From Thermoanaerobaculia bacterium (GTDB lineage Bacteria > Acidobacteriota > Thermoanaerobaculia > UBA5066): a stretch of 64,000 bases of DNA. Position 1 is the stretch's first letter, and each line of letters begins with the position of its first letter. The stretch spans positions 319,982-383,981 of the forward strand of contig CAWEJK010000009.1 of the NCBI GenBank assembly GCA_963809425.1, written 5' to 3'. A model generated the notes under the pieces. It was not told the origin of the DNA. It did not search any database and saw only the letters and a program-made list of their open reading frames with translations. Shown in pieces: positions 13,531 through 55,766 of this stretch. Both the position numbers and the translations under genes were made by a program.

Positions 13531-14805
13531 TCAGGTGACGGCCGGACCCTCGTCCGCGAAGCGCCGCCAGCGCTCCTCGTCGAGCACACGCCGGAACCGC
13601 GCGACCGCTTCGACGAGGTCGGAAAACCGCGTCGCGAGCGGCGAGAGCCCGAAACGGATCAAGTCGGGCGGCCGGAAGTCGGGAATGACGTTCATCTCCC
13701 CGATGAGCGCGCGGTCTACGGCGAGGCCCTCGGGGTGGCCGAACGAGACGTGCGCGCCGCGCCGCGCGGCGTCGCGCGGCGAACGCAGCGTCACGCCGCG
13801 CGTTTCGAGAGCCGACTCCCACAGGCGCACGAGGAACTCCCCGAGGGCCACGGTCTTCTTCCGGGCCGGCTCGATACCCGCCTCGAGCGCGAGGTCGACA
13901 CCCGCCTCCGCGCCGACGAGCGAAAGGATCGGCGGCGTGCCCACGAGGAACCGCGAGATGTCCCGCGCCGGCTCGTACCCGTCCCGGAACGAGAAGGGCT
14001 CGTGGCGCGAGAACCAGCCGGGAATCGGGTTCTGAAGAGTCTCCTGCAGCGCGCGGCGCACGTAGAGAAAGGCGGGCGCGCCCGGCCCTCCGTTCAGGTA
14101 CTTGTACGTGCAGCCGACCGCGAGATCCGCGCCGGACGCCTCGAGGTCGACCTGGACCGCGCCGACGGAATGGCTGACGTCCCAGAGAACGAGCGCGCCT
14201 TTCGCGTGGGCGCGCGCCGTGACCGCCGGGAGGTCGTGGAGGAATCCGCTCCTGTAAGCGACGTGCGACAGCGACACGAGCGCCGTGTCCTCCGTGATGG
14301 CTGCGCCGAGATCCGCGTCGTCGATCGCGATGCCGTCGCGCGACGGGACGACGACGACGCCGTGTCCCGCCTCCAGGAGGGCCGCCGCGCCTTCGAGGAC
14401 GTAGAGATCCGACGGAAAGTTCAAAGCGTCCGTGACGATCGTGCGGCGTCCGCGCCGCGCCCGGAGCGCCGCCACGGCGAGCTTGAAGAGATTCACGCTG
14501 GTGCCGTCGGACACGGCGACCTCGCCGTCCCCCGCGCCGAGGAGACGCGCGAGCTTGTCGCCGACGCGGCGCGGCGCGTCCACCCACCCGTCGTTCCAGC
14601 CCCGAACGAGGCGCGCGCCCCATTCCTCCTGGACGGCGCGCCCGACGAGAGCCGCCGACCTCTTCGGCAACCGCCCGAGCGAATTGCCGTCGAAATAGAG
14701 GAGGTCCTCGTCGTCGAACACGAACTCGTCGCGGAAGCGCGCAAGCGGGTCCGCGCGGTCGAGCGACCGGGCCTCCTCGCGGAGCGCTTCCCAGGGAATC
14801 GTCAA
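13531..14805 (-). CDS. kynU: Kynureninase-like PLP-dependent enzyme (aminotransferase class V fold)
   Basis: The N-terminal ~175 codons of ORF 13531..15321 are R/G-rich junk overlapping hemL. The real protein starts at a TTG whose last base overlaps the hemL TGA stop (TTGA, 14802-14805). Kynureninase-type motifs are present (LLYFDGNSLGRLPK, ...VGCTYKYLNGGPGAPAFLYV). Confidence 0.55.
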   Translation of the reverse strand: MTIPWEALREEARSLDRADPLARFRDEFVFDDEDLLYFDGNSLGRLPKRSAALVGRAVQEEWGARLVRGWNDGWVDAPRRVGDKLARLLGAGDGEVAVSDGTSVNLFKLAVAALRARRGRRTIVTDALNFPSDLYVLEGAAALLEAGHGVVVVPSRDGIAIDDADLGAAITEDTALVSLSHVAYRSGFLHDLPAVTARAHAKGALVLWDVSHSVGAVQVDLEASGADLAVGCTYKYLNGGPGAPAFLYVRRALQETLQNPIPGWFSRHEPFSFRDGYEPARDISRFLVGTPPILSLVGAEAGVDLALEAGIEPARKKTVALGEFLVRLWESALETRGVTLRSPRDAARRGAHVSFGHPEGLAVDRALIGEMNVIPDFRPPDLIRFGLSPLATRFSDLVEAVARFRRVLDEERWRRFADEGPAVT

Positions 14806-16163
14806 CCGCCGGCCGGAAGTGAAAAGGCCGCTCTCAGCCCGGCTTCGTGAGCCTTCACGGTGGCCGCGACGTCGCGTGCCGTGTGCGCGGTCGAGACGAA
14901 CATCGCTTCGAACTGCGCCGGAGCCACGAAGACGCCGCTCCGGAGCAGCGCGTGGAACCAGCGCTTGAACGCTTCGAGGTCGGACTTCTTCGCGTCGTCG
15001 AAGTTCTTCACGGGGCCCACGGTGAAGAACGGCGTCAGGATCGATCCCACGCGGTTGATCGAGACGCGGTCCTGGACGCCGAGCTTCTTCGCGGCGGCGT
15101 TCAGCCCGCGTTCGAGCTCCTTCGCGGTCTTCTCGAGCTTCACGTAGACGGCGGGCGTCAGGCAATCGAGCATCGCCTTCCCCGCCGCCATCGCGAGCGG
15201 GTTCCCGGAGAGCGTTCCGGCCTGGTACACGGGGCCGTCCGGCGCGATCCGCGCCATGAGGTCCGCGCGGCCGCCGTAGGCGCCGACGGGCAGTCCCCCG
15301 CCGATGATCTTGCCGAGGCACGTCAGGTCGGGCCGGATCCCGTACAGCTCCTGCGCTCCGCCTCTCGCCACCCGAAAGCCGCTGATGACCTCGTCGAAGA
15401 GCAGCAGCGCTCCTTCGCGGTCCGCGATGCGGCGGAGGCCCTCGAGAAAGCCCGGGGCAGGCGCCACGACGCCCATGTTCGCGGCGATCGGCTCGACGGC
15501 GATGACGGCGATGCGCTTCGGATGCGCCCGAAAGAGGTCCTCGACGGACTCCAGGTCGTTGTAACGCGCGGTCAGCGTGAGGCCGGCGAGAGAGCTCGGG
15601 ACGCCGGGCGAGCCCGGAATGCCGAGCGTCGCGAGACCCGAGCCCGCCGAAACGAGAAACGAGTCGGCGTGCCCGTGGTAGCAGCCCGCGAACTTCAGGA
15701 CGAGGTCGCGGCCCGTGGCGCCGCGCGCGAGGCGCAGCGCGCTCATCGCGGCCTCCGTTCCCGAGGACACGAACCGCACCTTCTCGATCGACGGGAAGGC
15801 CTTCGTGACGCGCTCGGCGAGCTCGACCTCCCCCTTCGAAGGCGCGCCGTAGGACGTGCCGCGCGGCAACGCCCTGCGGACCGCCGACAGGACCGGCCCG
15901 TACGCGTGCCCGAACACGAGCGGCCCGTACGACATGACCCAGTCGACGTACCGGTTCCCGTCCGCGTCGATCAGGGTCGCGCCGCGGCCCTTCTTCACGA
16001 AGAACGGCTGGCCGCCCACGGACGCGAACGAGCGCACCGGCGACGACACGCCGCCTGGCATGCGTTTCTTGGCTCGTTCGAAGAGCGCTTCGGATTGAAG
16101 AGTTCTGCGGTGACGCTTTCGACCGGTAGTGGCGCTTCGTGCTGATTTATCGCTCATCGTCAT
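14802..16163 (-). CDS. hemL: Glutamate-1-semialdehyde 2,1-aminomutase
   Basis: 453 aa with family hallmarks (ALFERAKKRMPGGVSSPVRSF, ...DEVISGFRV...). The exact start within the first ~30 codons is uncertain. Confidence 0.9.
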   Translation of the reverse strand: MTMSDKSARSATTGRKRHRRTLQSEALFERAKKRMPGGVSSPVRSFASVGGQPFFVKKGRGATLIDADGNRYVDWVMSYGPLVFGHAYGPVLSAVRRALPRGTSYGAPSKGEVELAERVTKAFPSIEKVRFVSSGTEAAMSALRLARGATGRDLVLKFAGCYHGHADSFLVSAGSGLATLGIPGSPGVPSSLAGLTLTARYNDLESVEDLFRAHPKRIAVIAVEPIAANMGVVAPAPGFLEGLRRIADREGALLLFDEVISGFRVARGGAQELYGIRPDLTCLGKIIGGGLPVGAYGGRADLMARIAPDGPVYQAGTLSGNPLAMAAGKAMLDCLTPAVYVKLEKTAKELERGLNAAAKKLGVQDRVSINRVGSILTPFFTVGPVKNFDDAKKSDLEAFKRWFHALLRSGVFVAPAQFEAMFVSTAHTARDVAATVKAHEAGLRAAFSLPAGG

Positions 16164-16372
16164 GTCGCATTTCTTTCTGCTATGCGGCGGCCGCTTTGCG
16201 GCCGCCGACGGAAGTCAATCTCTGCCCGAATGTCCGGTGTCAAGGGCGCGCTCGCGCGCCGCGCAGCGGTCACCGACCCTTGACATCGGACATTCGGGAG
16301 CACATTCGTTTCTTCGGGTGGCCGCGAATGCGGCCACCGATAGCAGGAACCCCCTCTTTCTTCCCTCTTCTT
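16164..16372. repeat. ~210-bp palindromic MITE/REP-like intergenic element (copy A) between hemL and hemB
   Basis: Terminal inverted repeat CTGCTAT...ATAGCAG. Internal GC hairpins are GCGGCGGCCGC-TTT-GCGGCCGCCG and GGTGGCCGC-GAAT-GCGGCCACC. The central long hairpin is CCCGAATGTCCGG-TGTCAAGGG-[32 nt]-CCCTTGACA-T-CGGACATTCGGG. The element is flanked by pyrimidine tracts (TTTCTTTCTG and CTCTTTCTTCCCTCTTCTTCTAAG). The core is ~85% identical to copy B at 44222-44436. Confidence 0.6.
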
Positions 16373-17344
16373 CTAAGCCAGCCACTCGGCGGCTTCCTTC
16401 GCGTGATACGTGAGGATGAGGTCCGCGCCCGCGCGCCGCATCGACGTGAGGATCTCGAGCGTCACGCGCTTGCCGTCGATCCAGCCGTTCGCCGCCGCGG
16501 CCTTCACCATCGCGTACTCCCCGGACACGTTGTAGCAGGCGACGGGCACGTTCGTGGCCTCCTTCGCCGCGCGGACGACGTCGAGGTACGCGAGCGCGGG
16601 CTTGACCATCACGAGGTCGGCGCCCTCCTCGACGTCCGAGAGGATCTCCTTCACGCCCTCGCGCACGTTCGCCGGATCCATCTGGTAGGAGCGCCGGTCG
16701 CCGAAGGAGGGGGTCGACCCGGCGGCCTCGCGGAACGGGCCGTAGAACCCGGACGCGTACTTCGCGGCGTACGCGAGGAGCGCGACGTCGCGAAATCCCC
16801 CGCCGTCGAGCTTCGCGCGGATCGCGCCGACGCGCCCGTCCATCATGTCGGAAGGCGCGACGACGTCCGCGCCCGCCGCCGCGTGCGCGAGCGCCTGCGC
16901 CGCGAGGAGAGGCAGCGTCGCGTCGTTGTCCACGGTGCCCTCGGCGAGCGCGCCGCAGTGGCCGTGGTCCGTGTACTCGCACAGGCAGACGTCCGTCATG
17001 ACGACCGTGGCCGGGCTCTCGGCCTTGATCGCCCGCACCGCCCGGCAGACCGGGCCCTCGGGATCGGCGCCCGAAGTGCCCATCGCGTCCTTGCGCTCGG
17101 GAATCCCGAAAAGGATCACGGAGAGGACGCCGAGGGAGGCGAGGCCCTTCGCGTCTTTCGCGGCCAGGTCGGCCGAGACCCGGTCGACGCCCGGCATCGA
17201 CGGCACCGGCTGCCGCACGCCGCGTCCCGGCACGACGAAGAGCGGCGCGATGAAGTGCGACGGAGCGAGAGACGTCTCCCGCACGAGCGTCCGCAGGCTC
17301 TCGGAGCGCCGCAGGCGGCGGTAGCGGTGGAGGGGAAAGCTCAT
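16373..17344 (-). CDS. hemB: Porphobilinogen synthase (delta-aminolevulinic acid dehydratase)
   Basis: Internal ATG (MSFPLHRYRRLRRSESLRTLVRE...) is the genuine start; the upstream 40 codons are junk. Conserved active-site lysine regions are present (VAPSDMMDGRV, ...YQMDP...). The start overlaps the hemD stop (ATGA at 17341-17344). Confidence 0.9.
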   Translation of the reverse strand: MSFPLHRYRRLRRSESLRTLVRETSLAPSHFIAPLFVVPGRGVRQPVPSMPGVDRVSADLAAKDAKGLASLGVLSVILFGIPERKDAMGTSGADPEGPVCRAVRAIKAESPATVVMTDVCLCEYTDHGHCGALAEGTVDNDATLPLLAAQALAHAAAGADVVAPSDMMDGRVGAIRAKLDGGGFRDVALLAYAAKYASGFYGPFREAAGSTPSFGDRRSYQMDPANVREGVKEILSDVEEGADLVMVKPALAYLDVVRAAKEATNVPVACYNVSGEYAMVKAAAANGWIDGKRVTLEILTSMRRAGADLILTYHAKEAAEWLA

Positions 17345-18102
17345 CGTATTTCCTTCCGGAGGAGGGCGAGGAGTTCGGAGAGGCGCGCGTGGGCGGGAAC
17401 CAAAGGCGTGGGCAGCCCCCGGGCCGTGACGGCCTTCGCGGTCTCGGGCCCGAGCACGCCCCATCTTAACGGCGGGAGAGACGCGGCCGGCGCGGCCAGG
17501 GCGGCGAGAAGCGCGTCGAGACCCGCCGTCGAGCCCACGGCCACGGCGGCGAACCGTCTGGCACGGAGGTCGGAGAGGATCGACGGATTCATCTCGGAGG
17601 CGGAGAGAGGACGTTTTTCGTAGACCACGGGGGCGACGAGCTGAATGCCGAGCGCACGAATTCCCTCGAACGCCTCCGGGGCCGAATCCGAGCCGTGTGG
17701 CCAGAGGAGGCGCATGTGCGAAGGAGCAGGGGACTTCTTCAGGTAGGCGATGACGCCCGCGGCTCCCGGTATCTCGGGAACGACGATCGGCGCCGCGTTC
17801 TGGGTCGAGGCCGCGGCGCGGCGTCCCGGGTCGCTGCCCCCCATGATCACCCTTCTCAGCAGCTCCCCGGTGCCCTCGCCGACCGCCAGCATCTGCGCGA
17901 ACGACGAGCGAAAGAGCGGAAGAAGAAACCCGATCGTCTCCTTCGACGAGACGACGAGCGTCGCGCCATCCGTGTCGAACGCGAGCGCCTCGGCAATCCC
18001 CTGGGGGCGCGGCGAGACGGCGTGCGTGTAGAGAACGGTCACGTCCCCCGAGAAGGCGTCTTCGGATCCGGCGGCGCCGGAGCGAAGGAGAAGGATCCTC
18101 AC
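17341..18102 (-). CDS. hemD: Uroporphyrinogen-III synthase
   Basis: 253 aa, GTG start, HemD-like length with weak family similarity. Position in the hemA-C-D-B order supports the call. Confidence 0.65.
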   Translation of the reverse strand: MRILLLRSGAAGSEDAFSGDVTVLYTHAVSPRPQGIAEALAFDTDGATLVVSSKETIGFLLPLFRSSFAQMLAVGEGTGELLRRVIMGGSDPGRRAAASTQNAAPIVVPEIPGAAGVIAYLKKSPAPSHMRLLWPHGSDSAPEAFEGIRALGIQLVAPVVYEKRPLSASEMNPSILSDLRARRFAAVAVGSTAGLDALLAALAAPAASLPPLRWGVLGPETAKAVTARGLPTPLVPAHARLSELLALLRKEIR

Positions 18103-18130
18103 GGCGCGAGGATACCCAGTCGCGAGCGCA

Positions 18131-19175
18131 TCACGGAGTCGTCGCTCGCGCCGCGTCGATGAGCCGCGCAGCGCCGCGCGCGAGGAGGCGCTCGGCGAGC
18201 TGGCGGCCCAGGGAGGAGGAGAAAGAAGAAGAGGAAGAGAAAGAGGAAGAGGAAGATTTCTTAGAAGGAAGAGAGAGGGGAACCTGTGGCAGAGGCGTGC
18301 TCAAATCTTCTTCCAGGCATTCGCGCCCATCGAGTGAGAGCACGCGGCCCACGAGCTTCAGCGTGCGATTTCCCTCTTCACCTTCTAAGAATCCTCGAGC
18401 GCCGACAGGCGCTCGACATCCCCCTCTTAGAACAAAACAGAAGCTCTCTCTCGGCCTCCGCCGCAACTCGTGAGCTGAAATCGTCCATTTGTTCCAGCGC
18501 CGCGATCGTCTCGGCGTCGTCCGCCCGGCAGCCGATGCCGAGCGCGCCCTGCGCCGGCGCGCCGAGCATCTCGTCCCGCTCGAGCCGGCGCGTGATGACG
18601 CCTCCCCTGTCGAGCCTGTCGAGGCCCGCGCACGCGAGGATGAGCGCGTCGGCGCGGCCCTCCTCGAGGCGCTGGAGGCGCGTGTCGACGTTGCCGGCGA
18701 TCGCGACCGTCACGAGGTCGGGCCGGATTCGGAGGAGCTGCGACACGCGCCGGGGCGACGACGTGGCCACGCGCGCGCCGGGTGGAAGCGCGCTCACGCT
18801 CGTCACGCCCGCGTGACGCGAGGCGACGACGAACGCGTCGCGCGCGTCCGCGCGTCTCGGCACGGCGGCGAGCCGGACGCCCGCGGCCACGACCGTGGGG
18901 ACGTCCTTGAGGGAGTGGACCGCGAAGTCGATCTCGTTCGCGAGGAGCGCCTCGTCGAGCGCGCGCACGAAGACGCCCGCGGCATCGCCTCCGGGAGGGG
19001 CCTTGCCCTCGCTGGAGAGCTGGTCCCCCTGGGTGCGGATGATGACGGTCTCGACGGGGCGGCCCGAGATCCGGGAAAGCTCCGCCGCGAAGGCTCCCGA
19101 CTGCGCGCGGGCGAGCGCGCTGGCGCGCGTGCCCATCCGGAGCGGCCGCGTCGGGACGGCGGGAGCCGCCGTCAT
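18131..19175 (-). CDS. hemC: Hydroxymethylbilane synthase (porphobilinogen deaminase), disrupted by an apparent +1 frameshift at a C5 run (18420-18424). It carries an ~18-aa Ser-rich insertion near the C-terminus.
   Basis: The N-terminal 250 aa lie in the frame of ORF 18378..19463 (MTAAPAVPTRPLRMGTRASALARAQS...). The conserved GGCRAPVGA...LGRQLAERLLARGAARLI C-terminus lies in the frame of ORF 18131..18466. The span is 1045 nt, which is 3n+1. The ATG at 19173-19175 overlaps the hemA TGA stop (ATGA). Confidence 0.8.
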
Positions 19176-20443
19176 TTGGAGCTTTCGTCGAGGCGGAACA
19201 GGGCGCGCACGGCCGCGGCGCGCTCCAGGCGCTCCGAGCTGTCGCCTTCCTTCAGGCCGACCGTCGGATCGTGGAGGATGTGGGCGACGAGCGTCTCCGT
19301 GAGCCGCTCGACCGCGGCGCGGTCGGGCGCGCTCAGCGCCGCGAGCTTGCCGGAGTGCTTGTCGAGCTCGGCGCGCCGGATGCTCTCGAGCTTCTCGCGA
19401 AGCCCGCGCACGACGTCGGTCTGCAGGAGTCCGCTGCGCCAGTCCTGGAACTTCAGGACGCACTCCTCGACGATGGTCTCCGCGCGCGGCACTTCGCCCG
19501 CGCGGGCCCGCGCGTTCTCGGCCGCCATCTCCTGCAGCGCGTCGAGGTCGTAGCGGTAGACGTCCGCAAGCTCGCCGACCTCGAGTTCGACGTCGCGCGG
19601 CACGGCCAGATCGAGGACGAGAAGCGGTCCGCGGCGCGGCGCCGCGTGGAGCGCGGTGCGAAGCGCCCCGGCCGTCAGGACGGGCTCGGTCGCATTCGTG
19701 GCGGAGAGAACGAGGTCCACGCCCGCCGCCGCCCGGGCGCGGTCATCCCACCGCACGGCACGCCCCCGGCTGGCCGCGGCGAGAGCCTCGCCCCTTTCGT
19801 GCGAGCGGTTCGTCACGAGGATCTCCGAGACGCCGTCCTCCGCGAGGAGGCGGGCCGTGAGCTCGGCGGTCTCGCCCGCCCCGATGAGGAGGACCTTTCG
19901 GCCCTTCAGCGACTCGAAGACGCGCGCCGCGAGGCCGAGCGCGAGACCGGCGACCGAGGTGGGCTTCTGGCCGAGCGCCGTCTCCGCCCGCACGCGTTTG
20001 CCGCATTCGAGAGCGCTCATGAACAGCCGGTTCATCACCGTTCGGATCGTTCCGGCCGCCGTCGCGAGGCGGTGCGCCTCGCGGATCTGCCCGAGGATCT
20101 GCGCCTCTCCGACGACCATGGAGTCGAGGCCCGCCGCGACGCGGAAGAGATGGCGCACCGTCGCGTCGCCGCGGCCCGAGAGCGCCGCCTGCCTCAGGAC
20201 CGCGTCGTCCACGCGGTGGAAACGCGAGAAGAATCCCGCGAGCGCGTCGAAGCTGTCCTCGTGCACGGCGATCCCGTAGATCTCGGCGCGGTTACAGGTG
20301 GACACGATCGCGCCTTCCGACAGGATGTGCTCCGCGAACAGGCCGTCGAGCGCCTCACGCGCCTTCTCGGGCGTGAAGGCGAGTCTCTCTCTCAGGTCGA
20401 GAGGCGCCGCGCGATGGTCCCAACCGACGAAGAGGAGGTTCAT
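19172..20443 (-). CDS. hemA: Glutamyl-tRNA reductase
   Basis: The genuine start is MNLLFVGWDHRAAPLDLRERLAF at 20443. Family motifs are present (STCNRAEIYG, GAGETAE NAD-binding). The ~250 upstream codons of ORF 19172..21247 are junk overlapping hemX. Confidence 0.9.
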   Translation of the reverse strand: MNLLFVGWDHRAAPLDLRERLAFTPEKAREALDGLFAEHILSEGAIVSTCNRAEIYGIAVHEDSFDALAGFFSRFHRVDDAVLRQAALSGRGDATVRHLFRVAAGLDSMVVGEAQILGQIREAHRLATAAGTIRTVMNRLFMSALECGKRVRAETALGQKPTSVAGLALGLAARVFESLKGRKVLLIGAGETAELTARLLAEDGVSEILVTNRSHERGEALAAASRGRAVRWDDRARAAAGVDLVLSATNATEPVLTAGALRTALHAAPRRGPLLVLDLAVPRDVELEVGELADVYRYDLDALQEMAAENARARAGEVPRAETIVEECVLKFQDWRSGLLQTDVVRGLREKLESIRRAELDKHSGKLAALSAPDRAAVERLTETLVAHILHDPTVGLKEGDSSERLERAAAVRALFRLDESSK

Positions 20444-21282
20444 GACGTGAAGTCGTGCAGCTTGCTGACGAAGAGGTTTACGGCGGTGTACGAAAGAAGC
20501 ACGAGCAGGAACCCCGCGACCGACAGCCGCGCCGTCGAGACGGGAGCCGCGCCGCGGTGCGCGCGCAGGATCACGAAAATGTAGAACGCGAGCGTCGCGA
20601 GCGCGAACCAGATCTTCGGATCGAGCGCCCACAGCGGATGCTCGCCCTTCCACATGCGCGACGCCCAGAAGAGCCCGAGGAAAAGCCCGACCGCGAGGGC
20701 GAGGACACCGAGAGAGAGCGACGTGCGGTTCGCGCGCTCGAGGTACGAGAGGCTCGGGAGCCGCGAGGCCGGACCCGAGAAGGCGCGCTTCTTCAGCGAT
20801 CGGCCGACCCACAGATACAGGAGCGACAGCGCGCACGCGACCGCGAACGCGGCGTACGCGAGCATGTTCAGCGTGACGTGCAGCGCGAAGACCGGGCCCT
20901 TCAGCTCGGGCGCGTCCGCGTGGACGGGCGACGTCAGGGACACGGAGAGGAGCAGGAACGCGAGGGCCGCGGGCATCAGGAACGGGCCCAGGGACCGGTC
21001 CCGGTGCCGTAACTCGAGGACGATGTTCAGGACCGCGAGAAAGAACCCGAAGAGCTTCATCGAGCCGAGGAGGTCGCGGTACGGAACCGTGTGGAGCGCG
21101 GCGGACCGCGCGTAGAGCGTGCCGAAGTTGAAGGCGGCGCCGAGGACTGCGAACGCGGTCGCCGCCCGGCCGATCGCCTGGTGCGTCCGGAAGAGCGACG
21201 TCGTGTAGAGAACCGCCGACAGGGAATAGGCCACGAGGGCCGCCCAACCGAGCGTCGTCGCGAGCTGCGCGGCATCCGTCAC
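20440..21282 (-). CDS. hemX: CcsA/ResC-like cytochrome c assembly membrane protein (HemX-type, as in Bacillus hemAXCDBL)
   Basis: Polytopic membrane protein with a W/aromatic-rich CcsA-like C-terminus (LFWASRMWKGEHPLWALDPKIWFALATLAFYIFVIL). Its stop overlaps the hemA start. The start is assigned to the GTG at 21282 (VTDAAQLATTLGW...) and is uncertain. Confidence 0.6.
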   Translation of the reverse strand: MTDAAQLATTLGWAALVAYSLSAVLYTTSLFRTHQAIGRAATAFAVLGAAFNFGTLYARSAALHTVPYRDLLGSMKLFGFFLAVLNIVLELRHRDRSLGPFLMPAALAFLLLSVSLTSPVHADAPELKGPVFALHVTLNMLAYAAFAVACALSLLYLWVGRSLKKRAFSGPASRLPSLSYLERANRTSLSLGVLALAVGLFLGLFWASRMWKGEHPLWALDPKIWFALATLAFYIFVILRAHRGAAPVSTARLSVAGFLLVLLSYTAVNLFVSKLHDFTS

Positions 21283-21362
21283 GGCCGCGATTATAGGAAC
21301 CCCGTGAGAACGACGATTTCGTGCGGATGCATCAGGCGCCCCGAACCGGCTCGCGCGGCCGA

Positions 21363-21379
21363 TGCTAACCTCCCGCGCC
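21363..21379 (+). promoter_or_regulatory. Conserved 17-mer TGCTAACCTCCCGCGCC abutting the hemE start codon
   Basis: Near-identical copies lie immediately 5' of the hemN GTG (28169-28184) and in the hemN 5' duplicate (26260-26276). A variant GATGCTAATCTCGACACGCC lies at 58284-58303. Confidence 0.3.
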
Positions 21380-22423
21380 ATGCCCGATGCCGCACGGCGT
21401 CCGTCGCGCCAGCGTTTCCTCGATGCGGCCTTCGGGCGTCCGACGGACGTCCCGCCGGTGTGGCTCATGCGCCAGGCCGGCCGCTACCTGCCCGAATATC
21501 GCGACGTCCGCAAGCGCCTCAAGTTCCTCGAGCTGTGCGCCGACGTGCCGGCCGCCATCGAAGTGACGCTCCAGCCGTTCCGGCGTTTCGGGATGGACGG
21601 CGTCGTCTTCTTCTCCGACATCCTCATCCCGCTGCCGCCGATGGGCATCGAAGTCCAGCTCGACGAGGGAGGCCCGAAGCTCCCGAACCCGATCCGCACC
21701 GCCGCCGACGTCGCGAAGCTCCGGGAATTCGACCCGCACGTCGAGACCGCGTTCGTGATGGACATCCACCGCGGCATCAGGCGCATCGTCCACGACGACG
21801 CGGCCACGATCGGCTTCTGCGGGGCGCCGTGGACGCTCGCGACGTACGCGATCGAGGGCGGCTCCTCGAAGTCGTTCACGGCGGTCAAGACGATGATGCA
21901 TCGCGAGCCGAAGGTGCTCGAGGGCCTGCTCGCGAAGCTGGCCGACGCGTGCGGCCGGTACCTCGCGGCGCAGATCGAGTCGGGCGCGGACCTCGTGCAG
22001 ATCTTCGACTCGTGGGCCGGTGAGCTCTCGCGCGCCGACTACGACCGATTCGCGCGCCCCGCGACCGAGCGGCTCCTGTCGCACCTGCCGCGGCGCGGGC
22101 AGGTGCCCGTCGTCCACTTCGCCTCGGGCTCGTCGCACCTCATCGACTCGTTCGCCCGGATGCCGGTCGACGTGCTCTCGATCGACTGGAAGCTTCCGCT
22201 CGACGAGGCGCGCAAGCGCGCGCACGGCAAGGCGCTGCAGGGCAACGTCGATCCGGGCCTCCTCCTCGGAACGCCGGAGGGAGTCCGGGAAGCCGTGTAT
22301 GCCGCGCGGCGGGCGGCGGGCCCGACCGGTCACATCGTGAACCTCGGACACGGCATCCTGCCGCCCACGCCGATCGAGAACGTCGCCGCGTTCGTCGCGG
22401 CGGCGCGCGCCCCGCTGCCGTAG
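21380..22423 (+). CDS. hemE: Uroporphyrinogen decarboxylase
   Basis: URO-D signature PPVWLMRQAGRYLPEY. The second in-frame ATG at 21380 is preferred over the ORF-track start at 21362. Confidence 0.9.
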   Translation: MPDAARRPSRQRFLDAAFGRPTDVPPVWLMRQAGRYLPEYRDVRKRLKFLELCADVPAAIEVTLQPFRRFGMDGVVFFSDILIPLPPMGIEVQLDEGGPKLPNPIRTAADVAKLREFDPHVETAFVMDIHRGIRRIVHDDAATIGFCGAPWTLATYAIEGGSSKSFTAVKTMMHREPKVLEGLLAKLADACGRYLAAQIESGADLVQIFDSWAGELSRADYDRFARPATERLLSHLPRRGQVPVVHFASGSSHLIDSFARMPVDVLSIDWKLPLDEARKRAHGKALQGNVDPGLLLGTPEGVREAVYAARRAAGPTGHIVNLGHGILPPTPIENVAAFVAAARAPLP

Positions 22424-22438
22424 CGCGCGCAGCTGGCG

Positions 22439-23062
22439 TCACTCCGCGATGTCCGTCTCCGTCGAACCGGCGGGGGTCGCGCGGAAAACAAGAGGCACGG
22501 ACCCAAGGCGGATTTCGTCGCCGTCCGCAAGCGCCGTGGGCCCGGCGATCCGGCGCCCACGAACCCAGGTGCCGTTCTTGCTGCCGAGATCCTCCAGCGT
22601 GGCCACGTCTCCCGAAACGACGATCCGCGCATGGCGCCGCGAGATGGACTTCATCGAGATTACGATGGACGCGTCGTCGTCCCGCCCCAGCACGTTCTCG
22701 CCCGGCAAGAGCTCGAATTCCCGGGCCAGGTGGGTCACGCGAAACCGTGCGGCGGGCGCGACGAACGCGTCGAAGCGAAAGGCGTAGCCGAATCCGTAAA
22801 CCGTCTTGAGGAATCGGGGGCTCCGCGCATCCTCGCGGATGGCGGCCCGTACTTCGGAGACGAGGCTCTTGAGGTTCGATTCCTCAACGAAGAGGCTCGG
22901 CCAGAGCGACTCATAGAGGCTCGCCTTGGAAACGGCCTTCGGGGCGTGCCCGATGAGCAGTTCCAATAAGCGGAAGGCCTTCGGGGAGAGATGGACTGGC
23001 ACTTTTCCGCACCGCAGCTCTCGAGCCTCCGCATCGAACAGAAACTCGCCGAATCGGATCAT
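22439..23062 (-). CDS. Transcriptional regulator with N-terminal OmpR/PhoB-type winged-helix DNA-binding domain and C-terminal FHA domain (EmbR-like architecture)
   Basis: The N-terminus is trans_reg_C-like (PKAFRLLELLIGHAPKAVSKASLYESLWP...TVYGFGYAF). The C-terminus is FHA-like (ENVLGRDDDASIVISMKSISRRHARIVVSGDVATLEDLGSKNGTWVRGRRI). Confidence 0.7.
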   Translation of the reverse strand: MIRFGEFLFDAEARELRCGKVPVHLSPKAFRLLELLIGHAPKAVSKASLYESLWPSLFVEESNLKSLVSEVRAAIREDARSPRFLKTVYGFGYAFRFDAFVAPAARFRVTHLAREFELLPGENVLGRDDDASIVISMKSISRRHARIVVSGDVATLEDLGSKNGTWVRGRRIAGPTALADGDEIRLGSVPLVFRATPAGSTETDIAE

Positions 23063-23143
23063 CGAAACCTACCAGATCCCTACCATTTGCTCACGACTTC
23101 CAGCGCGCGGGGAATGCACGTTGTCGGCAGAAAGGAGAACGCC

Positions 23144-23821
23144 ATGAATCTTCAACGAAACCGCGCGCCCGCTCTTCTTCTCTCGCTGCTCTTCCTGCTC
23201 GTTTCTCCGGCGATGCTAGCGCAGGCCATGAGGGCCGAGAACGACGACGTCCAGCTGCCGGAGGTGGTCACGGAAGGGCAGCTGCTCTTCGAGTTCGTCG
23301 GGCAGGTCTCGAACTTCACCCCGACCACCTCCGCGCAGTATGGGTACTTCACGTGGGTCAGAGGCATCGACACCCTGTTCTCGGGAAGCCCGGCGAACGA
23401 GACGTCGGCACGGTTTACGTTCTACCGCGAGATGACGAACGTCGCCGTCGTCGTCAACGGGACGCTCAAGATCATCTCCCGCGAGGGGACCACGACGCTC
23501 TATCTACAGCCGTCCGGCGGCGCCACGTTCTCGAATCCCGACTCGTTCAGGGCCGGCACGCCCATCCAGACGTCTCACTCGCACCAGCAGGTCATCGTCG
23601 ACACCGTGACCTCGGCTTTCACGGTGGTCAACTTCGAAACGGTCACGGCGACGCCGCGATTCATGCTCGACGGACACGACACGACTCTGGGCCGTGTCGG
23701 AGACGTTTACCGCACTTCCAAGCAGGGCCACCTCTTCTCGCCGAGCCCTGCCGGCTATTTCAGCGGCTACTCCGTCAGCGTCTCCCGGACGACGGGCGGC
23801 AGGGGCGCGATTCAGGAATAG
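23144..23821 (+). CDS. Secreted hypothetical protein
   Basis: An AAAGGAGAA ribosome-binding site precedes the ATG at 23144. Signal peptide is MNLQRNRAPALLLSLLFLLVSPAMLAQA. No recognisable domain. Confidence 0.5.
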   Translation: MNLQRNRAPALLLSLLFLLVSPAMLAQAMRAENDDVQLPEVVTEGQLLFEFVGQVSNFTPTTSAQYGYFTWVRGIDTLFSGSPANETSARFTFYREMTNVAVVVNGTLKIISREGTTTLYLQPSGGATFSNPDSFRAGTPIQTSHSHQQVIVDTVTSAFTVVNFETVTATPRFMLDGHDTTLGRVGDVYRTSKQGHLFSPSPAGYFSGYSVSVSRTTGGRGAIQE

Positions 23822-23833
23822 GGCCGCCCGAGC

Positions 23834-26236
23834 TCAGGACGGAAACCCGACGCGCTTGATCAACGCTTCGAAGCGGGGGTCGGAACGGATCGGCTCCCAG
23901 CGCAGGTCCCGCTTGAGCCAGACGAGCCAGTGGGTTCGTTCCTCGACTGCCTTGTCCAGCCAGGCGAAGGCCTGATCCTTGTCGCCCAGCGCCGCATGAA
24001 CGAGAGCAACGGCGTAGGCGGTTACGTACTCTTTTTTCGACCGCGCCTCCAGGTTGGAGAGAACCTGGAGCGCTTCCTGGCGCTTGCCCTGGATCCCGTA
24101 GACATACCCGATTCCCGCGACCGTCGGCACCCACTCCTTGAGCGGTCCGGTCGCCTGGTATTCGGCGATGGCCTGGTCGTAAAGACCCTTCGCCTGATAG
24201 ACCCGCCCGAGAAAGAGATGCGCGGGCGGGTACTGGGGGTTCATTTCGAGGGCCTTTCGCAATTCCTCCGCCGCCTGGTCCTGCTCGTGGCTGTAATGAA
24301 GAAGGAAACCCATGTCCGACTCGATCGGGACGGAGAGGGGATCGAGCTCGTGCGCTCGCTGGATCTGGGCGCGTGCTTCGGGAAGGCGCCCGGTCGCAGT
24401 CAAGAGGTAGGCGTACCAGTCGTGGGCCGTCGCGTAGTTTGAATTCAGCTCGATGGCTCGCCGAAATTCGCTTTCGGCTCCGGCCCAGTCCCAGTCGAAA
24501 TAGAACTTGACGTAGGCGAGCGACGCGTGCGGCTCGGCGAGCGTGGCATCGATCTCGAGCGCCCTCTCAGCGGCCGATCGCGCCTTGGGAAAAACCTCTC
24601 GGGGCGCGAGAAGGCTCAAGTAGCCGAGCTGAGTGTAGGAGTCGGCGATCCCCGAGTACGCCACCGCATAGGCCGGATCGACGTCCAGGGCCTGCTGGAA
24701 GAACCCGATCGCTTTCTTCAGGTCTTCGCCGCCGCGCTTATTCCAGAAATACCGCCCCTTCACATAGGCCTCGAAAGCGGCCGGGTCGACGCTCCTGGTC
24801 TTCGCGAGCTGCACCAGCTCCGGTGAAGCCAGCTCGAGCCGGCCGGCGCGGGCGATCGCCCCCGCAATTTCACTTTCCAGGGCGACCACGTCGCCGAGGT
24901 CGCGCTCGTACGTCTGAGCCCAGAGGTGCTTGTCCGACGCTCCGTCGATGAGCTGGGCCGTCACGCGGACCTTCCCGTCCGCGCGCGAGACCGATCCCTC
25001 CACGACCGCCTCGACGCCGAGCTCCTTTGCGATCTCGGGCAGTCGTTTTTTCGTGTCGCGGTACGACATGACTGAAGTTCGGGAGGTGACGCGGAGCCCG
25101 CTGATTCGGCCGAGACGGCCGATCAGCTCTTCGGTAATACCGTCGGCGAAATACTCCTGGCTCGGGTCACCCGAAAGATTCTGAAGGGGAAGCACGGCGA
25201 CCGATCGGATAGCGGCGCCCTTCCCACCGCCAGTCAGGCGGTTTCGCAATCCGCCGATGTCGAAGATGGCAAAGAGCGCAACGGCCAGGACGATTACGCC
25301 CGCTGCGATGGCGGCAGCCCGACCGCGGCGCACCGCCGGTCCCGCCGTCGCGACGCCGGACATCTGAATCGCCGAAGCCGACGTCGACGCAATCTCGCGG
25401 AGCGCGTAGGTCAGATCGCGGGTCGACTGAAACCTCTCGTCAGGGGCCTTCTCCAGGCAGCGCGTGATGACGCGCGCGAGCGCGAGCGGGATCGTCTTCC
25501 CCGATTCCGCGAGATCCGGCGGTGACTCCTTGAGGATGGCCGCCATCGTGTCGGCGCTGGTCTTGCCCGGGAACGCCCGCCTGCCTGTCACCATCTCGTA
25601 GAGCACGGATCCGAACGAGAAAATGTCGCTCCGCGGGTCCACCGGAAGCCCGCGGACCTGCTCGGGAGACATATAGGTGGCCGTCCCCATGACCGTTCCG
25701 GGCTCCGTCGCCGTTACCGTCGCGAGAGCGCTTTCGGCCCCGACGGCGGCATCCGGCTCGTGCCGCGCCAGACCGAAATCGAGAATCTTCACGCGCCCGT
25801 CCTCGGTCAGAAAGACGTTCTCGGGCTTCAGGTCGCGGTGGACGATGCCCCGCGCATGTGCCGCCGCGAGCCCATCGGCGATCGAAATGGCGATCTCCGT
25901 CGCCTTGCGCCACGCGAGGGACTCCCGATCGAGGCGAGCGCGCAGCGTCTCACCGCGGAGGAGCTCAGTGACCGAGTAGCAAACGTCGCCTTCGATCCCA
26001 AAGTCGTGGATCGCAAGGATGTTCGGATGGGACAGTGCCGCGACTGCGCGTGCTTCGCGTTCGAAGCGGGCGATCGCCGCCGAGTCCGAGATGAGATGCT
26101 CGCGGAGCACCTTGACGGCGACCTCACGGCCGAGACGCGTGTCACGCGCCCGGTAGATGGTGCCCATTCCCCCTGAGCCCAGCTCGCCGAGAACCTCATA
26201 GGGCCCGAACCGAGCGCCTGCGGGCAACAATTCCAA
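23834..26236 (-). CDS. Ser/Thr protein kinase with TM segment, TolB-N-like periplasmic module and C-terminal TPR repeats
   Basis: Hanks kinase motifs are present (GSGGMGTIYRA, VAVKVL, HRDLKPENVFL, DFGLAR, GTATYMSPEQ). A TM helix (AAIAAGVIVLAVALFAIF) and TPR-like C-terminal repeats follow. The start is assigned to the TTG at 26236 (LELLPAGARFGPYEV); the upstream ~175 codons of the ORF are junk. Confidence 0.8.
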   Translation of the reverse strand: MELLPAGARFGPYEVLGELGSGGMGTIYRARDTRLGREVAVKVLREHLISDSAAIARFEREARAVAALSHPNILAIHDFGIEGDVCYSVTELLRGETLRARLDRESLAWRKATEIAISIADGLAAAHARGIVHRDLKPENVFLTEDGRVKILDFGLARHEPDAAVGAESALATVTATEPGTVMGTATYMSPEQVRGLPVDPRSDIFSFGSVLYEMVTGRRAFPGKTSADTMAAILKESPPDLAESGKTIPLALARVITRCLEKAPDERFQSTRDLTYALREIASTSASAIQMSGVATAGPAVRRGRAAAIAAGVIVLAVALFAIFDIGGLRNRLTGGGKGAAIRSVAVLPLQNLSGDPSQEYFADGITEELIGRLGRISGLRVTSRTSVMSYRDTKKRLPEIAKELGVEAVVEGSVSRADGKVRVTAQLIDGASDKHLWAQTYERDLGDVVALESEIAGAIARAGRLELASPELVQLAKTRSVDPAAFEAYVKGRYFWNKRGGEDLKKAIGFFQQALDVDPAYAVAYSGIADSYTQLGYLSLLAPREVFPKARSAAERALEIDATLAEPHASLAYVKFYFDWDWAGAESEFRRAIELNSNYATAHDWYAYLLTATGRLPEARAQIQRAHELDPLSVPIESDMGFLLHYSHEQDQAAEELRKALEMNPQYPPAHLFLGRVYQAKGLYDQAIAEYQATGPLKEWVPTVAGIGYVYGIQGKRQEALQVLSNLEARSKKEYVTAYAVALVHAALGDKDQAFAWLDKAVEERTHWLVWLKRDLRWEPIRSDPRFEALIKRVGFPS

Positions 26237-26259
26237 ATCCTGAAGGCATTCTACGCCGG

Positions 26260-26359
26260 TGCTAACCTCGCGCCCGCGAGCGCCATTCCGATCCGACTCG
26301 GCGGCGAGACGCTCCCGATGACCACGGAGCTGTTCGACAAAGACAACGTCCAGTCTTAA
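26260..26359 (+). pseudogene. Decayed ~100-bp duplicate of the hemN 5' end, including the TGCTAACCTCGCGCCCG motif
   Basis: 26260-26355 is ~90% identical to 28169-28265. The copy reads (A)SAIPIRLGGETLPMTTELFDKDNVQS then stops. The GTG start is mutated to GCG. Confidence 0.6.
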
Positions 26360-26423
26360 GGACGATTCGTCAATATTGCGTCCGGCACGATCCGTGCTGT
26401 ACGTCACAAAACCGGAGGCCCCG

Positions 26424-28064
26424 ATGAAGAACTCAACGGTTGCCGGCCTGGTGCTTCTCCTCGCCGCACCTGTCCAGGCGCAGACACCGAACGCCCCGCG
26501 CCCCGTGAAGGGCTCCGTCGAGGCCGTCGCCGCCGAGGTCGAAGTGCTCGTCGTCGACAGGAAGGGCACGCCGGTCGACGGCCTCACGAGGGACGACTTC
26601 AGGCTCTTCGTGAACGGCAAGGAGATGCCGCTCGACTGGTTCGAGGCGCCGCCGGCGCCGGGCGCTTCCGCGACGCCTTCCGTTCCCGTTGCTCCAGCCG
26701 CGGCGGCGGCTCCGCCGGCAACGGCGTCGACGCTTTCGTCCCGCGCCCACAGCACGGTCTTCGTCATCTCATCCCTCCACGTCGACGCGGGCGCCCAGAG
26801 AGCAGGCCTCGATGCCCTGCGCGCGTATGCGGACCGCCTGCCGGACGGCGAACAGGCCTCCGTCTATCTCCTGGACAACGGCGCTCGCCGCCTCGTGGGA
26901 TTCACGAGCGACCGCAAGGTGCTGAAGAAGGCGATCGAACGGCCGAAACGAATCCTTCCGTCGTCGTACGCCTTCGACGCGCGGGACGACGAGTGGGTCG
27001 GCCGCTCGCGCCAGATGCTTCGAAACCTCGGGACCGTTTTCGACGGCCTCGCGAGCCGGCCCGAATCGAAGACGGTCGTCATGCTCACGGGCCCGCTCTG
27101 GCCCACGGGAAACATCGTCCCGCCGAGCGGCGCGAGCCTTTTCAAGGGGTCGCACGCCGCCCCCGCGGGCGGCCCCAGGTCTTCGGCCAGCCCTCTCGAC
27201 ACGGCCGGCGCGGTCACGCATTACAGCAACCCGGTGACGACCCGAGGCGAGCGCCAGTGGAACTTCCTGGGGGAGGCCAGAGACCTCGAGAACCAGGCTT
27301 TCCTCGCGCGCGCCACGGTCGTCGCGCTCGACCCGAGCGGCATCCTCGCGCCGGCCGGACAGGCCGACTCGAAGGAGCCCGACAACCGGGACCTTCTCGC
27401 GGCGGGCGATTCGTGGGAGTTTCGGAACGACACGTTCGCCTTGATCGCGGAGGCGACGGGCGGCTCCCGCCTCGGGTTCTCGAACAAGCCCGTCGACCTC
27501 ATCCTCGGCGCGTCGCGCCTCCTCGCAAGGCGTTACCGCCTCGGCTTCACGCCGCCGGACGGGACGTCCGCGCGGCGGGACATCCGCGTGGAGATGGCGC
27601 GCCCCGGCCTCGTCGTGCGCACGGCGAGCGGCCAGCGCTCCCTGACGGCCGAGACCGCCGCGCGCGCGCGCTTCTCGGGACTCCTCCTTTCGTCGGATGC
27701 GCCCCAGGGTGACTTCACGATCGCGGTCGAGATGAAGTCCCGGGTCTCGAAACGCACGGACGACGCGCTCCCCTTCGACATCCTCGTGCCCGTTTCCGGC
27801 GTCTACGCCGAGGAGCGGGGCGAGAGCAGGCGGGCGGAGCTGGAGCTTCTCGTCTCGGCGGTCGACGGCGAGGGACGCGCCTCGGAGCCGATCGTCATCC
27901 CGTTCTCCGTCGAGCTCGACACGGCGGCGGCCCGGGACGGCGCCTTCTTCCGCAAGGACTCGAGCTTCAGCATCGACAAGCGCTGGAAGGGGCGCCTGTT
28001 CGTCGGCGTGCGCGACACGGCCACGAACCGCCTCGGGGCGGTCGCGATGCCGATCGGAGGCTGA
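26424..28064 (+). CDS. Secreted VWA-domain protein (paralog of 59848..61482)
   Basis: A GGAGG ribosome-binding site lies 6 nt before the ATG at 26424. Signal peptide is MKNSTVAGLVLLLAAPVQAQ. The protein shares a VDG(K/L)...F(V/F)... VWA-like core and a conserved C-terminal block (...DTATNR(L/I)G...) with 59848..61482. Confidence 0.5.
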   Translation: MKNSTVAGLVLLLAAPVQAQTPNAPRPVKGSVEAVAAEVEVLVVDRKGTPVDGLTRDDFRLFVNGKEMPLDWFEAPPAPGASATPSVPVAPAAAAAPPATASTLSSRAHSTVFVISSLHVDAGAQRAGLDALRAYADRLPDGEQASVYLLDNGARRLVGFTSDRKVLKKAIERPKRILPSSYAFDARDDEWVGRSRQMLRNLGTVFDGLASRPESKTVVMLTGPLWPTGNIVPPSGASLFKGSHAAPAGGPRSSASPLDTAGAVTHYSNPVTTRGERQWNFLGEARDLENQAFLARATVVALDPSGILAPAGQADSKEPDNRDLLAAGDSWEFRNDTFALIAEATGGSRLGFSNKPVDLILGASRLLARRYRLGFTPPDGTSARRDIRVEMARPGLVVRTASGQRSLTAETAARARFSGLLLSSDAPQGDFTIAVEMKSRVSKRTDDALPFDILVPVSGVYAEERGESRRAELELLVSAVDGEGRASEPIVIPFSVELDTAAARDGAFFRKDSSFSIDKRWKGRLFVGVRDTATNRLGAVAMPIGG

Positions 28065-28168
28065 GGATGCGCGCTCGCGCCGCCGCGTGCCCGGGCGGTG
28101 ACGGTCCTCGAGTGAGCGCGGCCCCGACCTCCTGATGCAATTGAAGGACGAGACTCCGTCGCGACGAG

Positions 28169-28184
28169 TGCTAACCTCGCGCCC
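28169..28184 (+). promoter_or_regulatory. TGCTAACCTCGCGCCC motif immediately 5' of the hemN GTG start
   Basis: Same motif as 21363-21379 and 26260-26276. Confidence 0.3.
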
Positions 28185-29612: not shown

Positions 29613-29652
29613 GCGGTTCGGCAGGGGCGATATTGAATTTCTTAGAAGGCGA

Positions 29653-32048: not shown

Positions 32049-32054
32049 GATCCC

Positions 32055-32124
32055 GAGAGCAGGAAGCAGGAAAGAAAGAGGAAAAGAAAGAAAGACAAAG
32101 ATGCTTAGAAAGGAAAGAGGGAGG
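32055..32124. repeat. Polypurine tract (~70 nt, about 90% A/G on the plus strand) containing GATGCTTAGAAAGGAAAGAGGG
   Basis: Sequence AGAGCAGGAAGCAGGAAAGAAAGAGGAAAAGAAAGAAAGACAAAGATGCTTAGAAAGGAAAGAGGGAGG. It is related to the tracts at 18214-18262, 31187-31245, 55545-55600 and 44225-44250. Confidence 0.6.
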
Positions 32125-55760: not shown

Positions 55761-55766
55761 CTCCCG

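Follow-up and report, generated by a model that had tools for sequence, protein, structure and literature searches.

What does a strand-pure run of purines do inside an essential heme-biosynthesis gene, and why does its core recur in the neighbourhood? The question is raised by hemC in a 64,000-nt stretch of contig CAWEJK010000009.1 (hereafter the window; GC content ~68%), whose lineage, judged by HemC homologs, is Thermoanaerobaculia, Acidobacteriota. A preliminary description of the window had reported a polypurine·polypyrimidine tract inserted in frame in hemC, with related tracts at five other places, and had attributed them to a short mobile or recombinogenic sequence family. We read the recurring core as a lineage-specific cis element apparently overprinted on coding sequence, and the serine-codon run that accompanies it in hemC as a slippage-prone extension.

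The purine tract and the serine linker of HemC

The sequence quoted in the preliminary description lies at 18205–18280 of the plus strand, between the SLDGRE and LGRQLAERLL blocks of HemC as it had stated, and reads PLSLPSKKSSSSSFSSSSSFSSS on the minus strand. The following features cover it:

18205–18259, minus strand: (TCY)n serine-codon run encoding SSSSSFSSSSSFSSS, the variable part of the HemC linker; polypurine on the plus strand.
18252–18280, plus strand: motif copy D, GAAGATTTCTTAGAAGGAAGAGAGAGGGG; the hemC mRNA reads CCUUCUAAGAAAUC (PSKK); position weight matrix (PWM) score 33.7, nhmmer E=0.0013.

Copies of the motif were scored by PWM, and matches to the motif profile were obtained with nhmmer, for which E values are given. 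On the sequence evidence, the tract is the opposite-strand image of a UCU/UCC serine-codon run joined to one conserved copy of the motif. The purine run measures 55 nt (18205–18259) and lies on the non-coding strand of hemC. In the window, five tracts reach a length of 30 nt or more and a purine or pyrimidine content of 90% or more (starting at 18205, 32054, 32208, 38826 and 55546), against 0.14 expected from a purine/pyrimidine Markov model (maximum of two in 100 runs). All 15 serine codons of the hemC run are TCT or TCC, nine of them TCT, a codon that accounts for 5% of the serine codons in the window (P ~1e-8).

The comparison DNA consisted of loci from relatives (L001–L009 and L081–L095); compared proteins are labelled P0001 and so on. 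Full-length HemC proteins of many relatives (75–90% identity) read '...PSSPSKKS..SSSSS-LGR' at the same position, and a serine-rich linker occupies this position in 13 Thermoanaerobaculia orthologs. D together with the serine run is extra sequence relative to distant HemC (L008, Escherichia coli), and the serine insertion amounts to ~20 aa when measured against relatives that lack it; the extra segment reported earlier is therefore present, although its size had been put at ~18 residues over typical HemC. Among 105 HemC clusters, the distance from SLDG to LAERLL covers nearly all lengths between 27 and 48 aa and also reaches 56, 57 and 71 aa, and the size of the insert among relatives ranges from almost nothing ('LLSKKIFLGR') up to ~60 residues. 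Some linkers repeat a PSKK/PSEK unit two to four times, and the motif-plus-run unit is tandemly duplicated in L009 (535–607) and P0031 (PSKE...PSKK; TSKK...PSEK...LSKN). By these comparisons, the linker also lengthens by unit duplication.

Codon purity combined with length polymorphism is the usual signature of slippage, and we therefore read the serine run as slippage-prone. The features of a slippage-made linker are present: a codon-homogeneous repeat, length polymorphism at a fixed site, and position in a disordered loop. The recombinogenic behaviour proposed earlier is borne out locally, by the change in run length and the tandem duplications in L009 and P0031, and is otherwise unsupported.

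In the AlphaFold2 model of P0001, residues 299–312 have a predicted local distance difference test (pLDDT) score below 50 and no secondary structure, the mean pLDDT of the model being a moderate 69. This loop is placed between the strand at 286–294, the last of domain 3, and the C-terminal helix at 308–338. According to the model, the linker is a disordered, length-variable loop of HemC. Mammalian HMBS carries its own 29-residue insert at the same loop of domain 3. As a codon-pure, length-polymorphic repeat in a disordered loop, the HemC linker resembles this insert as well as coding microsatellites and other low-complexity linkers. What sets it apart is that the serine run is joined to a conserved motif that is not repetitive, and that the run stays strand-pure from one species to the next.

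The homopurine–homopyrimidine tracts might alternatively act through H-DNA, a triplex or an R-loop. Their excess over expectation and their strand-pure composition would suit such a role, but the best mirror arms within the 55-nt tract are only 10–11 nt long and contain one mismatch, the TTTCTT core interrupts the purine strand, and the motif copies in hemD (see below) occur without long tracts. We consider an explanation by non-B DNA very improbable.

An asymmetric motif recurs in the heme genes

As derived from the DNA of relatives, the motif is ~25–30 nt long and asymmetric, approximately GATTTCT-N-AGAAGG(T)GAAGAGGG, with one purine-rich strand and a free central base. The 14-mer GATTTCTTAGAAGG occurs once exactly in the window and gives eight matches with up to three mismatches, where 1.5 are expected (0 of 100 shuffles reached eight). 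The 11-mer TTCTTAGAAGG is found exactly at 18258(+), 18381(−), 29639(+) and 31198(+), and all seven occurrences of CTTAGAA lie within 16371–32104, which is the heme cluster. With the motif profile we obtained 10 matches in the window, clustered within ~10 kb, and none in 1.94 Mb of control DNA made up of other loci, mostly actinobacterial and high in GC. The copies and their partners, in addition to D, are:

18369–18397, minus strand: copy M, CGAGGATTCTTAGAAGGTGAAGAGGGAAA, on the hemC sense strand; encodes GFLEGEEG in a beta-hairpin turn; PWM 33.5, nhmmer E=6e-5.
18415–18451, minus strand: island U, purine-rich GAGAGAGAG..UCUAAGAGGGGGAUGU, encoding ERELLFCLRGGC (LRGGC).
17839–17867, minus strand: hemD sense copy, GGGAGCTGCTGAGAAGGGTGATCATGGGG, encoding GELLRRVIM; PWM 18.4; weak in the window and strong in relatives.
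17729–17754, plus strand: hemD partner copy, GGGGACTTCTTCAGGTAGGCGATGAC, encoding YLKKS on the minus strand; degenerate in the window; relatives have GATTTTCTTAGAAAGTGAATGAC.
16357–16385, minus strand: copy at the hemB stop codon, GCTTAGAAGAAGAGGGAAGAAA; PWM 20.9; a palindromic intergenic element follows between this copy and the hemL start.
29633–29661, plus strand: hemN/hemH spacer copy, TTGAATTTCTTAGAAGGCGAATGAGCGAC; nhmmer E=1e-4; its ATG is the hemH start.
31192–31220, plus strand: hemY sense copy, GGGATTTTCTTAGAAGGAAAGAGAAGAAA, encoding DFLRRKEKK; PWM 36.5.
31303–31331, minus strand: degenerate inverted partner in hemY, 111 nt downstream; the plus strand, GCGGCCTCTTCACCCTCATAGAAAGTCTT, encodes GLFTLIESL; PWM 16.4; duplex −19.8 kcal/mol.
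32054–32124, plus strand: pepN-start copy with polypurine leader, AAAGATGCTTAGAAAGGAAAGAGGGAGG; MLRKE; PWM 31.0.
32186–32239, minus strand: inverted partner in pepN with pyrimidine tract, in the signal-peptide region, 90 nt downstream; PWM 18.5; duplex −28.8 kcal/mol.
55537–55667, plus strand: copies in the nth tail and the nth–tdk spacer, purine-rich at 55537 and 55573 (GAAGATTTCTTTGAAAGTGAAGAGGG), with an inverted partner at 55639–55667; nhmmer E=0.013.
43011–43148, plus strand: degenerate pair, GGAGATTTCCTCGAAGGTGG ... CTTTCGAGGAAATCCCC, in the C-terminal tail of a DEAD-box helicase gene; 37-nt arms, 73% complementary.

The sites that had been listed at 29630–29650 (hemN/hemH spacer), 31187–31245 (in hemY), 32055–32124 (hemY/pepN spacer and pepN start) and 55545–55600 (nth tail) all hold, as does the placing of copies in frame inside essential genes. 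The short sequence family is real, while its motif proved longer than first given and asymmetric, and includes a sense copy in hemC (18369–18397) that had not been listed. The flanks of the palindromic elements had also been said to carry the core: the pairs at 43011/43112 and 55573/55639 exist, with degenerate cores, and a further degenerate pair adjoins the palindromic element at 44.2 kb. The nth tail (55545–55600) carries the variant core TTTCTTTGAAAG, and the nth/tdk set contains the highest-scoring copies outside the heme cluster and the only strong ones there within the window. Copies sit within genes and at intra-operon junctions. In the hemN/hemH spacer, AGAAGG of the motif occupies the expected position of the hemH ribosome-binding site. 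Motif scans of the window placed no copy upstream of hemN or hemA, and none in the promoter-bearing divergent region around 21.4 kb.

The motif is kept at orthologous positions and against codon bias

Scanning ~229 kb of relatives' DNA with the motif profile yielded 42 matches, 33 of which were assigned by script to heme/pepN intervals and nine to the 94.5 kb that the script counted outside them. The hemC query was frameshifted (see below), which left the hemC 3' end uncovered in this assignment; the nine matches were reassigned to it by coordinate, so that all 42 lie in heme genes or at the pepN start, and the non-heme flank of the relatives, somewhat under 94.5 kb after reassignment, contains none. 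Orthologous copies correspond to the hemD sense copy in 13 loci, to the hemY sense copy in L001, L003, L004 and L085, and to the pepN-start copy in L003 and L004. At the hemB/hemL junction, relatives have two purine-first copies followed by one inverted copy, and U reads as a sense-strand copy of the motif (TTTCTTAGAGGGGGA) in several of them. L004 and L087 have a weaker copy at an equivalent distance from hemC, its hemN/hemH position being deduced from spacing. As far as these alignments reach, Thermoanaerobaculia keep the motif at the same positions, namely in hemC, in hemD, at the hemB/hemL junction, in hemY and at the pepN start, and some lineages keep it also in the hemN/hemH spacer. As a separate observation, L004 contains two pepN-like gene starts (439–482 and 2620–2661), each with a tandem motif doublet ATGCTCAGAA...ATGCTTAGAAAGG.

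The conserved nucleotides are read in different strands and frames and encode correspondingly different peptides: PSKKS, GFLEGE, LLRRV, FLRKS, MLRKE and, in L004, LLRN. The last of these arises where the nucleotides of D are kept although the deposited sequence reads another frame; L004 is probably a long-read assembly, and an indel could explain the shift. Averaged over 13 orthologs, the GC content at third codon positions (GC3) is ~0.9 along hemC and falls to 0.3–0.5 in U, 0.4–0.6 in M and 0.1–0.3 in D plus the run. GC3 of hemD dips likewise at both copies, to 0.3–0.4 at the partner copy. Rare codons are conserved at these sites (AGA in 10 of the 13 orthologs, TGT and GGT in nine, GGA of U in eight, TCT in nine or ten), whereas control segments carry the preferred codons; in the 13 window genes that served as the codon-usage baseline, AGA stands at 2.7%, TGT at 4.8% and TCT at 5%. 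D is kept in 11 of 13 orthologs with the rare codons CCT TCT AAG AAA TCT, and the codons GGA, GAA and GGT of M are conserved. By this measure, the nucleotides of the motif copies are preserved despite a strong GC3 codon bias. The preliminary description had likewise taken the feature to go beyond the protein, and the conservation of rare codons agrees. It had named as refuting evidence orthologs that have the low-complexity peptide but lack the nucleotide motif; this is not what the comparison shows, as orthologs carry the peptide and the nucleotide motif together.

These data bear directly on the possibility that only the protein matters, the linker being a slippage-made, serine-rich, low-complexity segment and the motif recurring as short peptides (LLRK, PSKK, FLEGE) that happen to be favoured. 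In its favour, slippage predicts a linker like this one, disordered, variable and homogeneous in its codons; mammalian HMBS has its insert at the same loop; and the hemY copy falls within a naturally basic loop. Against this, the same nucleotides specify different peptides in different strands and frames, non-coding copies exist at 29633 and in intergenic pairs, and codons of 0.4–5% usage are conserved in 13 orthologs where control segments use preferred ones. For the motif, this explanation is already largely refuted, and we judge it improbable. On our main reading, the locus is a clean example of nucleotide-level selection shaping a protein sequence and creating a variable serine linker in an essential enzyme.

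No Rfam family matched the motif region, searching the literature for the core sequence retrieved eukaryotic STAT/gamma-activated sequence (GAS) sites only and no paper matching the motif, and scans for consensus promoters and terminators gave nothing above chance. The DNA uptake sequences (DUS) of Neisseria and uptake signal sequences (USS) of Pasteurellaceae are short motifs overprinted on coding sequence on both strands and in several frames, at orthologous sites and sometimes as inverted pairs at gene ends. The heme motif is similarly overprinted in several frames, on both strands and at orthologous sites. DUS/USS, however, recur about once per kb throughout the genome, whereas the heme motif gave no match in the flanking non-heme DNA of relatives, and in the 64 kb of the window only a single clear locus lies beyond the heme cluster. 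The iron-control element of Irr, found in promoters of iron and heme genes, has the consensus TTTAGAA-N3-TTCTAAA with half-sites 3 nt apart; the present motif differs from it in reading TTCT-N-AGAA, with the opposite polarity, 1-nt spacing and a location outside promoter regions. Besides an Irr-type operator, the candidates considered were a CsrA or Hfq site, a Rho utilisation site in the CU run and an RNase E site (GA|UUU).

Copies form convergent pairs around native coding sequence

Where copies are neighbours, they are arranged as convergent inverted repeats (34 pairs, none divergent). The purine-rich arm comes first on either strand, the arms are 66–154 nt apart, and the 34 pairs represent roughly six independent sites. 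M is complementary to D over ~20–30 bp. In hemC and hemD, the arms enclose native coding sequence that is conserved, which excludes insertion of a miniature inverted-repeat transposable element (MITE) or a Rickettsia palindromic element (RPE) for those pairs.

The arrangement nevertheless recalls mobile elements. RPEs are short palindromic repeats that occur in frame within housekeeping genes, at surface loops where additional residues are tolerated (PMC10969869), and the heme motif shares with them and with other intragenic MITEs its in-frame location in housekeeping genes. A MITE- or RPE-like element inserting in frame would also account for inverted arms with a defined outside-to-inside polarity, for D plus the serine run as an insertion relative to distant HemC (L008, E. 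coli), for the tandem duplication of the unit in L009 and P0031, and for the existence of intergenic palindromic relatives, with the Rickettsia elements as precedent (PMC10969869). RPEs, however, are insertions of ~150 bp dispersed in unrelated genes, whereas the heme motif measures ~25–30 nt, has native DNA between its arms, is confined to one pathway at orthologous positions and in several copies consists of substitutions. The M–D interior aligns with HemC of a relative devoid of the motif (L008: ALVLRARVLSLDGAAMLEDE), both hemD copies lie in conserved helices, and M, like the hemD copies, consists of substituted and not of inserted nucleotides. The copies occupy orthologous positions in species whose HemC proteins share only 72–90% identity, 42 of 42 matches in relatives fall in heme genes or pepN, and we found neither empty/filled polymorphism at different sites nor a transposase among the ORFs scanned with Pfam. 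The ortholog sequences contain no obvious direct repeat beside D plus the run, the low-complexity flanks being hard to judge. On the time-scale sampled by these sequences, the motif copies are not mobile, contrary to what had been proposed, and an origin by an inserting element appears very improbable.

Convergent repeats could instead be recombinase sites that flip the 70–130-bp segment between them and so switch heme enzymes off. Intragenic invertons, with inverted repeats inside genes, have precedents, among them one in the biosynthetic gene thiC (PMC10028968); the 34 convergent pairs do provide inverted repeats of 20–30 nt inside genes, and an ORF (18159–18473) runs along the hemC segment on the opposite strand. 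Yet only the forward orientation was seen among 120 HemC clusters and 25 loci, and a query with the flipped peptide gave only low-complexity matches, a comparison of limited power because it used assemblies and not reads. No invertase or recombinase was identified among the window ORFs scanned with Pfam. Four essential genes of one pathway would all have to flip, and the segments are very short. Inversion therefore has, in our view, a very slim chance of being correct.

Arm pairing in heme mRNAs is the leading candidate mechanism

Of the candidate mechanisms, we rank pairing in RNA first and a protein site in DNA second. Long-range pairing of the arms in heme mRNAs stands, in our estimate, at somewhat less than an even chance. 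Purine-rich arms of the polycistronic heme mRNAs would pair with downstream pyrimidine-rich arms. In hemC, the fold would comprise three helices. The first would join U to the start of the CU run, the second is a hairpin with covariation that spans the codon of the catalytic cysteine, and the third would join M to D. In sequence, the purine-rich arms are similar to a Shine-Dalgarno element (AGAAGGUGA). Folds of this kind would modulate the access of ribosomes to heme operon transcripts, the speed of their translation or their processing by endonucleases. Because any CU run could pair with a GA run in many registers, the serine run would be free to grow or shrink by slippage or unequal recombination.

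The predicted arm duplexes have energies of −18 to −48 kcal/mol, and in the minimum free energy (MFE) fold of the hemC region U and M are nested against D and the CU run. When the three-helix model was scored, 88% of cells were paired, compared with 52–63% when it was slid. Helix 1, formed by U with the 9 nt that follow D, likewise has 88% of its cells paired and is rich in G–U pairs, which exist only on the sense RNA and hence point toward single-strand pairing. The remaining element is a short local hairpin:

18394–18415, minus strand: 9-bp hairpin, UCGAGCGCC-UGUC-GGCGCUCGA; GC-rich; codons C-RAPVGAR at the cofactor-binding catalytic cysteine.

Here 93% of cells were paired against 86.9% in shuffles, a value that 0 of 500 shuffles reached, and eight doubly changed cells were counted where 2.6 were expected. 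Compensatory third-position changes affect three pairs: the closing pair is U–A or C–G, the fourth G–C, C–G or A–U, and the seventh G–C or A–U. The heme motif thus shares with RNA structures in coding regions, and with anti-Shine-Dalgarno sequestration stems, reduced synonymous variation, purine-rich Shine-Dalgarno-like and pyrimidine-rich arms in one transcript, and a covarying hairpin. It differs from them in lacking an Rfam match and covariation of its long arms, and in being reused at ~ten places.

Several results weigh against pairing in the transcript. The z-score of the hemC fold is only −1.9, and for the hairpin neither of the two most robust measures, the number of pairs and of pair types with double changes, reaches significance. 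For the long arms we detected no covariation beyond column conservation, the observed pairing being reached by 161 of 500 shuffles for hemD and 242 of 500 for M–D in hemC; RNAalifold did not return arm pairing for the hemD region, and the pairing was then imposed and counted. Counted per column, G–U and A–C combinations number 13 versus 11 and 10 versus 8, with no clear excess; an apparent strand asymmetry of 143 versus 54 per cell, which we had tried as evidence, vanishes at this level and was discarded. Some copies, such as that upstream of hemH, have no good partner, the hemD pair of the window is degenerate (11 of 25 pairs are Watson–Crick), and D is retained in L083 and L086, where M is absent. 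Finally, a palindromic core with a free centre is what a dimeric DNA-binding protein would give. A generic scan for inverted repeats was swamped by chance pairs rich in GC.

The palindromic core leads to the second-ranked explanation, in which a lineage-specific DNA-binding protein, either a regulator of the pathway or an architectural protein, would bind the TTCT-N-AGAA palindrome, be oriented by its asymmetric flanks and bridge convergent sites 66–154 bp apart. It would explain a palindromic core whose central base is free to vary (in nine of 14, the pair at the centre does not form), the perfect 7-1-7 palindromes among the copies, such as ACTTTCTTAGAAAGT in L083, the regulon-like restriction to one pathway, and arms conserved without covariation. 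A winged-helix/FHA regulator and a Ser/Thr kinase are encoded in the cluster of the window. Conversely, the promoter-bearing divergent region and the DNA upstream of hemN and hemA are free of copies, and most copies lie deep in genes. The purine-rich context reaches far past a protein footprint. The regulator and the kinase seem, from site positions and spacing, to be absent from the compact cluster of L004, in which the motif is still present. The covariation in the hairpin and the G–U-rich helix 1 also favour single-strand pairing. We regard a protein site in DNA as unlikely, though the strongest alternative to RNA pairing.

Building on RNA pairing, we tentatively propose, as a wider scheme that is itself somewhat unlikely, that Thermoanaerobaculia may possess an undescribed, pathway-specific cis element of ~25 nt, arranged as convergent pairs of purine and pyrimidine arms in the coding sequence of at least five heme-biosynthesis genes. 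It would coordinate the heme pathway post-transcriptionally, for example through regulated long-range mRNA duplexes that are cut or masked by a trans factor, and the serine linker of HemC would be a by-product of keeping the pyrimidine arm. To our knowledge, heme-synthesis regulation is essentially unknown in Acidobacteriota, and a motif that many species retain, despite codon bias, in the same codons of hemC, hemD and hemY and at operon junctions offers a testable handle on it.

Apparent frameshifts in hemC and nth

The hemC gene of the window is split into two ORFs (18378–19463 and 18131–18466) by one extra T at ~18432–18436 on the minus strand, where it reads TGTTCT and relatives read TGT CTA (...CTG TTT TGT CTA AGA..., 'LLFCLRGGC'). 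More than 100 orthologs are intact. The database protein P0068 is the same truncated HemC product, and the truncated HemC proteins P0098 and P0103, encoded on long contigs, break at other points of the same low-GC island. The nth frame (55490–55800, plus strand) lacks a stop and stays open across the purine-rich tail and into the gene for thymidine kinase; the other two frames stop at 55546 (TAA) and ~55583 (TGA). Several related metagenome-assembled genomes (MAGs) bear 'MFD' isolate names, which denote a long-read (nanopore) soil survey. The breaks in hemC and nth are probably assembly indels in homopolymer-rich, low-GC islands and not biology. Programmed +1 frameshifting at the hemC break was considered and rejected: relatives lack the extra T and stay in frame, and the homopolymers at which other assemblies break are different ones. 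As low-GC islands coincide with apparent frameshifts in what are probably long-read assemblies, hemC and nth may be miscalled as pseudogenes in these MAGs.

Gene layout and neighbouring elements

The heme genes of the window form two groups, one per strand, the second of which is followed by pepN:

Minus strand: hemL 14802–16163, hemB 16373–17347, hemD 17341–18102 and hemC 18131–19175, then hemA and a ccsA-like gene.
Plus strand: hemE 21362–22423, hemN 28227–29612, hemH 29653–30639 and hemY 30636–32048.
32101–33930, plus strand: pepN (M1 peptidase), after hemY.

The hemA stop and hemC start overlap as ATGA at 19172–19175, which suggests translational coupling. Between hemE and hemN, the window seems to be ~5.7 kb longer than L004, as judged from the shorter hemC-to-hemH spacing of the latter; the extra stretch includes the winged-helix/FHA regulator (22439–23062) and the Ser/Thr kinase with TPR repeats (23834–26767). 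The 5' end of hemN is duplicated in a direct repeat of 95 nt (26259–26353 and 28168–28262; 93% identical), the copies of which flank an ORF at 26376–28064 that gave no Pfam match.

Palindromic intergenic elements of ~200 bp occur in two copies, at 16164–16372 and 44222–44437. Each has outer CTGCTATCGG/CCGATAGCAG repeats adjoining GC-rich hairpins (GGTGGCCGC..GCGGCCACC) and an inner repeat TGTCAAGG...CCTTGACA, with purine/pyrimidine-rich flanks. The DEAD-box helicase gene (41750–43414) encodes a Ser/Glu-rich low-complexity tail (43160–43230) built from the repeats TCTTCTTCCGAA and TCTTCCGAAGAA, just past the degenerate motif pair.

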